Shown here in pieces: positions 5,923 to 49,303 of a stretch of 64,000 bases of DNA. Under the pieces are notes generated by a model. That model did no database searches. It saw only the letters and a program-made list of their open reading frames with translations, and was not told where the DNA came from. The stretch is from the NCBI GenBank assembly GCA_951406725.2, contig OX597830.1, positions 47,678,001 to 47,742,000 of the forward strand, read 5' to 3'. A program made the translations under genes and the position numbers. The first letter of the stretch is position 1. Each line of letters starts with the position of its first letter. Origin of the DNA: Octopus vulgaris (lineage: Eukaryota).

Positions 5923-6122
5923 TCAATAATTGAATGTGTAGAGATCACAAAGCTTTTGAGAGTTATTTGAGTAGGCAAAAGCAACACATATCTGCTCGCG
6001 CTGACAAATTGAGGCACACCTCATTCTTGATGGACTTGTGGTTTCACGAAGTGGCTTCAGCGGGATATAAGGGTTGAAACCAAATACAAAGTAAGCACTA
6101 AAAGCCGAACCCTTAAATGTTC
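5923..6122 (-). CDS. PAN protein paralog A, terminal coding exon 5 (PAN/Apple domain 2)
   Basis: Strong acceptor (polyT-ctgtctttcgcag), phase 1. Encodes ...SRMRCASICQREQICVAFAYSNNSQKLCDLYTFNY*, with TGA at 5925-5923. Confidence 0.85.
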
Positions 6123-6819
6123 CTGCGAAAGACAGAAAAAAAAAATAAGGTTACATATAAAATTTTAATTATTTGAATTATTTGGAGTGTATATATATAT
6201 ATATATATATATATATATATATATATATATATATATATATAGAGAGAGAGAGAGAGAGAGAGAGAGAACAAATAGTGAGGGATTATCAATTCGGGCCAAA
6301 TACTTCGTAAGCTTTCTGTTGGTACACCAGACTAACACTATTTCTTAGATTAGTGAAGAACTCCAGGTAATCTTTTTTGGTAGGGTCCCAAGTTGTAGTT
6401 CATCACAGTTCTATATTGTAAATCTGGATGGGGTCCAGACAAATTGGTCTTTACGCAGTGTGATATATATAAGAAACAAGTTTTAAATAATGGTTATTAC
6501 TTATTTTTCCTTCACTGCTGGAGTAAATTTAGCTTACAGCTGTTTCCAGTAAGCATTAGAAGTACGTTGCCGATATGTTTACTCAAATGGTCTGTTCAAT
6601 TTACCTCAATTGGAAATTGGTGTAAGCCAAAATTGCGCTAATAAAGGAATTATACACACACACGCACACACACACACACACACACATTTAAAGTAAAGAG
6701 AAAATGGAGAAACATTGATCAACAAGAATTGACTTAGAACGAGAGGAAGACGAACGCCTTTCATCTTTCCCTCGAGGCTCTTCTTCTTTGCTTTTCTTTT
6801 CTTTTCTTTTATATATGTA

Positions 6820-7332
6820 CTAGCAGTATCGCCCGGCGTTGCTCGGGTTTGTAAGGGAAATAACTATATAAGCATTTTTAGAGAGTTACTTCCCTTATAG
6901 ATGCCAATTCGGGGTTTCTTAGCCATTTCTGTTTTGGTGTCTTCAAGCCATGAAGTCGTTGTTCTAAAAGAACGCTGGTCTCCTTGACAACGCTTTACGA
7001 CGTTGATTTCCTTACACTCCCTTCCCCACAGCTTCACGAGGGAGGAAAGAAGGGGGAGAAGCAAACAGGTGCAGGTGTGACCATGGGTGCCAACTCCGCC
7101 GCCATCGACACACGAAAAATTATGCATTAAAATGGAATAAAAAATGATGTTAAATTATTTTTAAAATCGTAGACTCATCGTAGACGCGCGCTAATTCTCA
7201 GACGGGCTCGATATGAATCACGACTATAAGATAGCCGAATTTGGTTAAACTGCACCGCAAAATGTGGGAGTAGTTAGGAATCTAAATCGAAGGGGACAGA
7301 CACTCACACAACTACAGTTTTATATATATAGA
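6820..7332 (-). mobile_element. Non-autonomous Helitron (copy A only)
   Basis: Minus strand starts A|TCTATATATATAAAAC and ends with a GC hairpin (CCCGAGCAACGCCGGG) then CTAG|T: canonical TC...CTAG termini at an AT target. Confidence 0.75.
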
Positions 7333-9722
7333 TTTTTCTTCACTCTGATGAAGATCCATGTTCCAGATCGGATGTATCACCAAATATGATGAATATTATT
7401 TTCAGAATTTTCAATGGCAATGCAATATAACATTGGAAGCAGAAACAGGTGTCAGATAGGATGCAGACTATTGGTATTGACTTAAAAAATAATAATTGAT
7501 GTAATTCAATTGTTGTTGATTAATATTTTCTCCATTCTGTTTTCTTTAAATTCGATTCCTGATAAACTCAAGTTTATCTTTGTCATTACCTGTAACCTAT
7601 GACCGTAATATGCTTGCATATCTATGTCCAGGGTTAACATAGGTCATTATACCGGTAGTATAACAGATATTTTGTATCCCTTAGACGGTTATTCTAACCT
7701 CTAAATCTACTAACCTTTATGTATGTATGTATGTATGTATGTATGTATGTATGTATGTATGTATGTATGTATGTATGTATGTATGTATGCATGCATGCAT
7801 GTATGTATTTATGTATGTATAGATATATATATATATATATATATGTATGGATATGGATATATATATATATATATATGGATATGGATATATATATATATAT
7901 ATATATATATATATATACATGTGTGTGTGTGTGTGTGTGTGTGTGTGTGTGTGTGTGTGTGTGTGTGTGTGTGTGTGTGTGTGTGTATGTATGTATATTA
8001 AACAGTAGTGAGATAAGAGATAAATTATTTATTGCAGGAAGCCTTAAAAAGTTAATTATGTGGCGCGAAGCAAGCATGTGTATGATTATTATAATTTTAA
8101 TTTTTCTAGCAAGCATGGGAGACAAATCTAGCCATTTTTCAGACCTATTCTGACTTTATTAGCAAAACATAGCCCTCACCATGTTTCCCAAAGTAGGGAT
8201 AAAAGAATCGCTAGGTAAATGTATAAGATTGCTGAAAGGTTGACGCAGGAAAAAATGAAAATATTTAGAGACACCATCCGCATAAAAAAAGCAATGTTTA
8301 ATTAAGTTAATATTAACATATTTACTGTATGGACCATTAATTAAATATAGATAACTATAGTGGATCTTTTCTTTCTTCCCTTCTCTTTCTGTTTTTAATT
8401 TTGCAACAATTTCATCAAAACCTTGTTAGTAAGAATAAACATCTAATTCCTAACGGAAAATAAGCCAACAGCAACTCAAAGATAAGATGGAATTAACTAC
8501 CATGTTTTCTTAAGCTTTTCTTTTTAAAGTTGTAGTATCGAAAAATCAATTTACATTTTCTTTCCGTTATTGATTAACCGCAGGTAAGCCCAGCTCGTTC
8601 AGATCTCTGATCAAAGGCATTCCAGATGTGACTATCCTGTTCCATTTTGTTTTTGTTTTCTTGTGTTACATTATAGGATGCGTTCTCTTTTTCAAATGGC
8701 AATCTATAATCTAAGGATAATTTGGTTCTTATTTTTAGCAAAAAAATCTACCGTATAGTGACTCCATCGTTTATATTACATGACTGGTGTTTATTTTATC
8801 GATTTAAGATAAATAAATGATAAATTGGCACATTTTTTCTTCTTCACTCTCCTTCTAAAATGGCCGCCTCATAATTCACATTTTTCCTTCTCACAATCTG
8901 TTTATGATGGTAACTTTGCCTTTGGTATATTTTCTTCTTTCTCTCAATGCTTGTCTCATACTTTACATGATTTCCTCATTATCTTTCTACCATATCTTCT
9001 CCATACTTTATTTCCGTTTTTTTTTGTTTCATTTTTCAACTTATAAATTTTTTAATAGCATTTTTTTATGTCTCAGTTCAAAACATTTCATTCAATTTGT
9101 CGCTGTTGTTGCTTAAATGATTCTTTGTGGTGACAAGATTAGAAAATGTGGACAAGTTGCAAGTTCCAATTTCGTAAATGGTATTAAAGTTGTTAATACG
9201 TTTTCGAGATAGGAAACTGGAAGATTACGATATTCATAGTTTACTTTGGCCGTCCTTTCGAACGCTTCAATGATTTCTCGTGAGCACGCCAACCATCACG
9301 GTTCCTCGTGCAAGTTCGTCAACATTTACCATTCCACTTTCCCGAAGCAAGTTGTCCACATAATTTTATTTTTGTTTTTGCCGAACCGCAGAGCTGTGAG
9401 AACGTAAACACACCAGCATCGGTTTTCATGCGGTTTTCAAGCGGTTACCACGCGCATACACGCACGCACGCGCGCACACACACACACACACACACACACA
9501 CACACACACACACACACACACACACACAAGATAATCTTCTTTCAGTTTCCGTTACCCAATCACAAAGCTTTAATCGGTCCAAGGCTACAGAAGAAAACAT
9601 TTGCCTAAGGTATCACGTAGTAGGACTGAAACCGGAACCATGTGGTCGGGAAACAATCATCTTAACACACAGCCATTGTTTTCTTACATAGGTTGAGTAA
9701 TTATCAAATGACTAGTATTATA

Positions 9723-47902: not shown

Positions 47903-48523
47903 AGAGATTGGTCCAGGCCGTGTCTAACTTAATAACACCACCTAATAGGCTTTTCTAAATCCTTTTAAAGTCAAGTTTTGTGTTATCATGGTCCATTCAA
48001 GTAGTGAGTTCTTGTTGAGTGAGTTGTATACAGGTATGGGTGGCTTATCTGGAATTCCTTGAAGAAATTTGTCCAGATCCGTTTAAAGTCGATGGGATCC
48101 TTTTCCTCTTTGATCAGTTTTGGGACAATGTTAAACACGGCAGGGCCTGTTGAGGAAAAGAAATTTTGCTGCAGTCTATTTATGTGTTGTGATCCTTAAT
48201 TGGGCAGGGGACGTATGGCCCGTGGTCCCAGCCTTGGATGAATTTTGAAGCTAATGTTCAGGTCGTTTTGGCAACGCTGGCAGTATATTCTCCACACCGT
48301 ACAAATGATGTACCGCTCGCGGCGGCACTGGAGAGACTAGAGTTTCAAGGCTTTGAGGCGGTTCCAGTAATCGAGATCAATCATGCCCTTAATTCGTTTA
48401 TTGAATGCCCTCTGGGGTGATTCAACTTTTGAGATGTTTTGCTTTGTATGGGGAGACCACAGGGGGCAGCAGTATTTGAGGTGTGGCCGTACAAAGGAAA
48501 AGTGGAATGATGACACCTTGTTC
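47903..48523 (-). mobile_element. LINE fragment (copy B paralog)
   Basis: Same sequence as 19800-20420. Confidence 0.8.
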
Positions 48524-49266
48524 TCTATATACAGAGAGAGAGAGAGAGAGAGAGAGAGAGAGAGAGAGAGAGAGAGAGAGAGAGAGAGAGAGAGTGAGTG
48601 AGAGAGAGATCGCATATATATATATATATATATATATATATATATATTGGGAGAGTTTACGAAAAAAAACAAAAGACGTATCAGTATAACGCTCAGCAAT
48701 AGAAAAAGTCTTTTACATTTCGAGTCTACGCTCTTCCACAGAAAGGGACACAGAAAAAAAACAAGAAGGGAAACATATATATATATATATATATATATAT
48801 ATATGTATGTATGTATATATATATATATATATATATATATATATATATATATATATATATATATATATATATATATATATATATATATATATATATATAT
48901 ATTAAATGTAAGCAGTGTATATTTATCTGTGTGTGTGTGTGTGTGTTAGCTGTTCATGAAGACTATCTGATAGAATATGAATGCTGTATTATTCATGTAA
49001 GATGCATCGCAGAATATTCCAACTTATTTTCACGTCATGTTAATCTGATCCTCACCTTTTAAGTATGAAACATATTTATATAAAGCCAACTATCACACGG
49101 TATACTTGCCTCGTAATTACGCTTGTAATCTTTTATATTTAAAATTTTATCCTTTTTACAAAATCATATTATATGCAACGCATTGAAAACAAAACGAAAA
49201 TCATTGAATTTAACTTCACAGAGAAATGGAAATGTCTGAAGAGAGATATAAGTATATTTAGCTTAC

Positions 49267-49303
49267 CAAAAATGGTTGACAACTTATGCAAAAGTTTGGA
49301 CAT
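49267..49303 (-). CDS. PAN protein paralog B, coding exon 1 (signal peptide)
   Basis: Identical to 21176-21212. Confidence 0.75.

Follow-up and report, generated by a model that had tools for sequence, protein, structure and literature searches.

A 64,000-nucleotide stretch of Octopus vulgaris DNA (assembly GCA_951406725.2, contig OX597830.1, positions 47,678,001 to 47,742,000; here called the window, whose numbering we use throughout) carries a head-to-tail 32-kb duplication and, in each of its two units, one minus-strand gene for a small, predicted secreted protein with two PAN/apple domains. The exons of the two gene copies, A and B, differ several times more than their introns, and the pair belongs to a clustered family of PAN genes in which positive selection can be detected. 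We consider it probable, on balance, that after the duplication the amino acids of both copies changed several-fold faster than the introns, most plausibly through positive selection on a binding protein. A sequence-only reading of this DNA had proposed a rapidly diversifying, undescribed family of secreted PAN proteins, and the family-wide selection and the exon excess reported below bear this out for an apparently undescribed family of likely secreted proteins.

Each copy consists of five phase-1 exons, and recomputing the splicing gave the same intact products that had been proposed, of 205 (A) and 207 (B) amino acids, with GT..AG at every intron and 10 cysteines in each product. The units and exons are as follows:

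1149..32966, plus strand: duplication unit A, 31.8 kb
32965..64000 in the window, plus strand: duplication unit B, continuing for 1862 bases outside the window, up to 65862 in the same numbering
32965..32966, no strand: head-to-tail junction, 2 bases common to both units, inside a dispersed repeat, without N
21176..21212, minus strand: gene A exon 1, start of the signal peptide predicted by hydropathy
17761..17793, minus strand: gene A exon 2, end of the predicted signal peptide
15361..15615, minus strand: gene A exon 3, coding for the first PAN domain, whose homologue in the three-PAN family is domain 2
11269..11361, minus strand: gene A exon 4, a linker rich in aromatic residues and with a single Cys
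5923..6122, minus strand: gene A exon 5, coding for the second PAN domain, with the stop
49267..49303, minus strand: gene B exon 1
45889..45921, minus strand: gene B exon 2
43493..43747, minus strand: gene B exon 3, first PAN domain
40225..40317, minus strand: gene B exon 4, linker
38514..38719, minus strand: gene B exon 5, second PAN domain, with 2 additional codons and a new stop at a 36-nt deletion

The junction is precise to the base and the units, the last part of unit B being taken from the adjoining genome stretch, abut exactly; kb-sized insertions and an inversion distinguish them, and the whole window is free of N. A longer N-terminus was ruled out, as the upstream ATGs within 300 nt are all out of frame. 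In intron 2 of A there is a possible 21-base phase-1 micro-exon (16285-16305, minus strand), identical in B and absent from database models.

With repeats masked in the introns, 32 of 613 exon columns differ between the copies (5.2%) vs 72 of 7621 intron sites (0.94%; p 1.4e-12), which confirms the proposal that the exons have outpaced the introns. The region 4400-5200, used as the non-coding control in that proposal, proved to be 3' flank, not intron, and unusually quiet (4/798, 0.5%). Over all aligned non-coding DNA, repeats masked, 175 of 13540 positions differ (1.3%). When neighbouring changes were merged into events, and the C-terminal tail and indel edges dropped, 18 events remained in 585 clean exon columns vs 67 in the 7621 intron sites (p 2.3e-5). 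Only 0.9-2.4% of equal-length non-coding windows attain the divergence of exon 3, 4 or 5. At replacement sites the intron rate would predict 4.5 changes, and 29 were observed (24 vs 4.4 if the tail is left out), which amounts to 5.5-6.5 times that rate.

The products A and B are identical at 181 of 205 residues. The 24 replacements, distributed 0/1/9/4/10 over exons 1 to 5, and the 2-aa indel were recovered exactly as counted before. The silent codons had been put at three; we count four, one of which hinges on the placement of the indel, plus one silent step within codon 68. Multi-nucleotide codon changes are present as claimed, with the qualification that T202E, F203V and Y205W border the 36-nt deletion next to the stop of B and so are not independent point changes. 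The signal exons show 2 differences in 70 nt, and exon 2 includes a replacement. All cysteines, splice sites and four N-glycosylation sequons are kept in both copies.

In order to place the pair, we searched the genome for relatives. No third close copy was found in genome searches, which gave two close copies (8/54 and 4/28 candidates matched). The nearest other genes are 28-36% identical, and conversion from a distant third paralog, named earlier as a possible source of the A/B differences, was rejected on that ground. Searches with distant relatives recovered the middle domain in 29 of 85 candidates, 28 of them on the same chromosome, the additional N-terminal domain in 26 of 53 and the last domain in 31 of 41. 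Nearly all middle-domain loci outside the window (25/26) carry all three exons in order, and 14 three-PAN loci lie 0.2-0.7 Mb from it. With this family the pair shares the middle domain, the Cys linker and the last domain, all on phase-1 exons. No remnant of the family's first PAN domain was detected in the window by tblastn or nhmmer, nor for the pair by genome search. The pair is a derived two-domain member, the first domain being absent, of a family that counts at least 25 three-PAN genes on the same chromosome and whose named relatives come from Octopus and Argonauta only. Mean identity across 25 genes is 80% in domain 1, 50% in domain 2 and 82% in domain 3. In two pairs of loci (L028/L033 and L024/L025) the middle-domain exons are nearly identical (1-2 changes) and the flanks 3-5.5% different, the opposite of the window pair, as either purifying selection or conversion confined to the exon would produce. 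Away from the main clusters there are also very distant or orphan PAN exons (L011, L071 at C17 26.7 Mb, L045 on C13, L023, L074 and L077).

We analyzed selection in 25 genes with our own implementation of codon models M2a vs M1a and M8 vs M8a, with a separate tree for each exon and branch lengths scaled from nucleotide trees. About 22% of sites in domains 1 and 2 evolve at a nonsynonymous-to-synonymous rate ratio (omega) of ~4, with twice the log-likelihood difference (2dlnL) reaching 35.9 and 105, respectively. Null simulations gave a maximum 2dlnL of 3.5 (8 runs), or 14.7 with recombination (8 runs); domain 3, with 2dlnL 6.6 and omega 0.63, falls below the latter, and selection is not demonstrated there. 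The expectation that omega would exceed 1 once paralogs were added was thus realized family-wide, in domains 1 and 2. An independent count over seven disjoint closest pairs, excluding the window pair and the orphan locus, gave 61.3 replacement vs 6.7 silent steps (proportions of replacement and silent differences, pN/pS, 2.6; p 0.008), with no excess in two of the seven. Gene conversion also shapes the family: the trees of the three domains have 1, 0 and 4 of ~20 splits in common, and the silent divergence of domain 2 exceeds that of domain 1 and of the adjacent intron. Part of the exon excess may therefore be older ancestry.

One close relative stands in the databases, XP_036366244.1 of O. 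sinensis, an uncharacterised protein of 205 residues, which is the orthologue; it shares 89-94% of residues with the pair, A differing at 13/205 and B at 23/205. O. bimaculoides XP_014785112.1, a model spanning exons 1-4, is 75% identical over 138 aa. With O. sinensis as reference, 16 replacements and the indel fall to B alone, 6 replacements fall to A alone, and 2 sites differ in all three. Among the four sequences, change is recurrent at sites 42, 46, 68, 116 and 120, and at codon 116 each copy underwent its own change, as a DNA run (X5) agrees in exon 4 with O. sinensis. By comparison, in exons of the three-PAN relatives 31 of 1391 residues depart from the best O. sinensis match, and several exons show no difference (20 of 22 exon rows, two non-orthologous rows being dropped). 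Judged by these sequences, the two-domain gene is among the fastest-changing members of the family today. At a mutation rate borrowed from another octopus (PMC7656900), the intron divergence corresponds to a duplication age of roughly 2 million generations, a rough estimate.

The PAN assignment rests on profile and structural comparisons. Exon 5 scores 24.0 and 24.5 bits in the two copies against Pfam PAN_1 (PF00024), above the cut-off of 21.4; exon 3 alone scores 19.9 and 17.4, under it; the whole O. sinensis orthologue scores 35.8 in two stretches. A structural model of exon 3, built from a 26-row alignment (predicted local distance difference test 81.6), has the PAN/apple fold, with a template-modelling score of ~0.7 to domains of plasminogen, HGF and kallikrein type and with a central helix, bearing the four core cysteines, packed on an antiparallel sheet. 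Its structural Z scores are 10-11 to plasminogen, HGF and kallikrein domains (plasminogen 10.9, root-mean-square deviation 2.2 over 75 residues), 9.6-9.9 to the apicomplexan lectins MIC4 and SML-2, 8.8 to LAPP and 5.3 to saratin; in sequence, too, SML-2 is the solved structure that matches best (E 8e-5). A model of the entire protein came out poor (42.6). Residues 8-20 are hydrophobic (nine-residue Kyte-Doolittle hydropathy, KD9, 2.8), and hydropathy shows no 19-residue stretch above 1.2 further on. Together with the four sequons, this hydrophobic N-terminus and the missing membrane anchor suggest that the protein is secreted. Two cysteines, C33 and C127, show no variation across the family alignment and may connect the linker to the first domain. 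The protein has no catalytic domain, and by analogy with PAN modules, which bind glycans and proteins and act by binding (PMC7191736, in part), it would act by binding alone.

Evidence of expression came from 24 coded sequencing runs without tissue labels, four of which we guessed to be RNA. An 839-nt contig from one of these (X1) matches 15361-15609, ends exactly at the exon 3 donor and then continues for 590 letters that are not intron sequence; these may be exons 4-5, or another last exon as in O. bimaculoides models. Splicing is thus supported at the exon 3 donor alone, and for a related allele rather than for either copy in the window. Exons 4 and 5 of B were left uncovered by X1 and X2, as was most of exon 5 by the DNA runs X5 and X7, which is a hole in the data, not evidence. 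The exon plan is common to the O. sinensis and O. bimaculoides gene models. In exon 3, two letters (15514 and 15518) are common to X1, X5, X6 and X7, occur in neither A nor B, and agree with the O. sinensis protein. The O. bimaculoides models P0002 and P0007 have another last exon in place of the second PAN domain, and one of them skips exon 4, so that single-domain isoforms may exist; a search up to 20 kb from the window did not turn up their tail peptide.

In the course of events that we propose, the 32-kb tandem duplication would have copied the gene for a predicted secreted two-PAN protein, after which both copies, B more than A, would have gathered replacements several times faster than their introns. 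The cause would be positive selection on a protein that, in a secretion, binds changing foreign surfaces, for instance glycans or proteins of microbes or parasites. A clustered family of ~27 genes, in which the frame is constant, a single domain varies and sister species differ little, suggests a defensive role. For the family, a non-self recognition repertoire is likely the best fit, with salivary and reproductive roles as its rivals. We advance more tentatively the idea of an octopod germ-line repertoire of ~27 secreted PAN-only recognition proteins, in which a swappable middle domain is selected and conversion reshuffles it, a truncated member is in an active arms race, and the duplication put two functionally different variants in tandem, giving a single chromosome both specificities; this fuller picture we hold to be unlikely as a whole.

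Several results weigh against rapid change after the duplication. The pair's own ratio of replacement to silent change (dN/dS), which was expected to exceed 1, does not do so significantly (Nei-Gojobori NG86 estimate 1.82, pN 0.062, pS 0.035, Fisher p 0.15; 1.5 and p 0.28 without the last four codons). Silent sites are themselves raised, with 5 changes vs 1.4 expected, 3.7 times the intron rate (p 0.013), falling to 2 vs 1.4 for isolated silent changes; and in the 14-gene cluster, domain 2 has pS 0.237 vs 0.112 in the adjacent intron and just 0.036 in domain 1. Many A/B differences are multi-base; multi-nucleotide mutation and gene conversion are named as confounders in part of PMC12737323, where multi-base changes are said to inflate selection tests. 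The asymmetry between A and B is borderline (p 0.052; 0.17 without the tail). The six A/B-variable domain positions that can be aligned to the family's domain 2 miss its selected columns (mean posterior at the pair's variable sites 0.0003 vs 0.23), which tells against a binding surface in common, and no transcript of copy A or B itself was seen in the guessed-RNA runs.

The raised silent sites, in the pair and in the family's domain 2, point to older exon ancestry as well. Long-balanced alleles may have been captured in tandem, or conversion may have homogenised the introns while selection held the exons apart, an explanation we judge possible although rather unlikely. It would account for the silent divergence of 3.5% vs 0.94% in introns, for the discordant domain trees, for the sharing of T46 between B and O. 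sinensis, S42 between B and O. bimaculoides and M120 between A and O. bimaculoides, and for A being nearer to O. sinensis (192/205) than to B. On the other hand, three of the five silent steps adjoin or fall within a replacement or the indel, F56 is common to A and B against all outgroups, and, a weak point, no B-like contig on exon 3 appeared in three of three DNA runs. Selection would still be needed, as upkeep of old variants and not as fast post-duplication change, so that both readings require it. Relaxed constraint on a decaying B, with multi-base mutations mimicking selection, would not; most changes, the indel and the new stop do fall in B, and A and B are absent from the protein collection searched, yet relaxation predicts a replacement rate equal to the intron rate, the event-based test holds (p 2e-5), and frame, cysteines and splice sites are intact, which makes decay the least probable explanation of all. 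Hardly more credible is an assembly artefact in which two haplotypes were laid side by side. A non-coding divergence of ~1% is of allelic size and runs X5-X7 gave one exon-3 contig each, but the junction is base-precise, with 2 shared bases and no N, and the exactly abutting units are set apart by insertions of kb size and by an inversion. Were it an artefact, the exon excess would stay and indicate balancing selection.

The remaining rivals concern function. A role as accessory factors of saliva or venom, directed at matrix or blood proteins of the prey in the manner of leech LAPP, would suit a small Cys-framed secreted protein with nearly constant signal exons and a variable mature part, and LAPP, which binds collagen (PMC7191736, in part), and saratin share the fold. 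Octopus salivary-gland papers, in the main text covered, name no PAN protein, and exon 2 carries a replacement too; we rate this role improbable, though worth keeping in view. Recognition in reproduction, whether sperm-egg, spermatophore or egg-coat, seems to us more doubtful still. The gene differs by 6-11% from the sister species and most relatives by 0-2%, as such a role might predict, but several three-PAN relatives are identical between both species, variable domain included, a misfit with species-specific recognition for the family. Gamete-recognition genes, moreover, are usually few-copy.

Other differences between the units lie outside the coding exons. An insertion confined to unit B (33530-36094), which we take to be a Penelope-type retroelement fragment, holds a 243-aa open frame (34420-35151, minus strand) with a GIY-YIG match slightly below cut-off (E 2e-4) and a 353-base direct repeat at 35431-36094. 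Intron 4 of A is longer than that of B by 3.6 kb, and ~480 bases of it are inverted between the copies (6190-6676 in A vs 38827-39309 in B). An AAT satellite spans 0.5 kb in unit A (23419-23941) vs ~7 kb with an insert in unit B (52301-59254).

No description of the family was found in the papers searched, most subscription papers lying outside the search, and the family appears undescribed; the evolutionary process of duplication, exon acceleration and conversion is well known. PMC10138644 and PMC12607849, in the parts covered, hold nothing on it, and a partial view of an octopus skin-mucus proteome supplement returned 0 matches for apple or the family accessions and 20 for a broad locus prefix, the first 2 of which were unrelated. 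The octopod heat maps of gene-family expansion in Whitelaw et al. 2020 (PMC7656900, Fig. 1B/C) do contain a row for the PAN domain, as a domain count only and, in the main text covered, without mention. Catalogues of the recognition proteins that serve immunity, venom and reproduction in cephalopods are poor, and the result is a defined, clustered family in which selection can be measured and whose young pair with 24 differences can be used side by side in a ligand search. Its value hinges on tissue and target, as the evolutionary pattern is already well known.

Among known systems, the nearest are the Octopus 'Apple domain-containing' proteins (XP_036366244.1, XP_014785112.1, XP_036366256.1) and Argonauta GAB1605676.1, whose exon plan, Cys frame and chromosome cluster are like the pair's; all are database entries without function, and one O. 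sinensis sequence was found vs the two copies here. Three-PAN relatives such as XP_036366256.1 have the additional N-terminal domain and 23-34% identity to the pair in the shared domain. Plasminogen, the HGF N domain and the apple domains of prekallikrein and factor XI have the fold of exon 3 in common at 12-16% identity, but the pair has no kringle or protease domain, just PAN domains and a linker. SML-2 of Sarcocystis, MIC4 of Toxoplasma and LAPP of the leech are likewise small secreted PAN proteins acting by binding; they are not orthologous to the pair, have no comparable clustered family shown, and on the modelled structure the likeness would be one of fold only. In conotoxin and snake-toxin families exons evolve faster than introns. 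These families also resemble the pair in constant signal exons, a Cys frame, a variable mature region, raised silent sites and tandem duplication; they have no sequence or fold relation to it and the pair has no propeptide.

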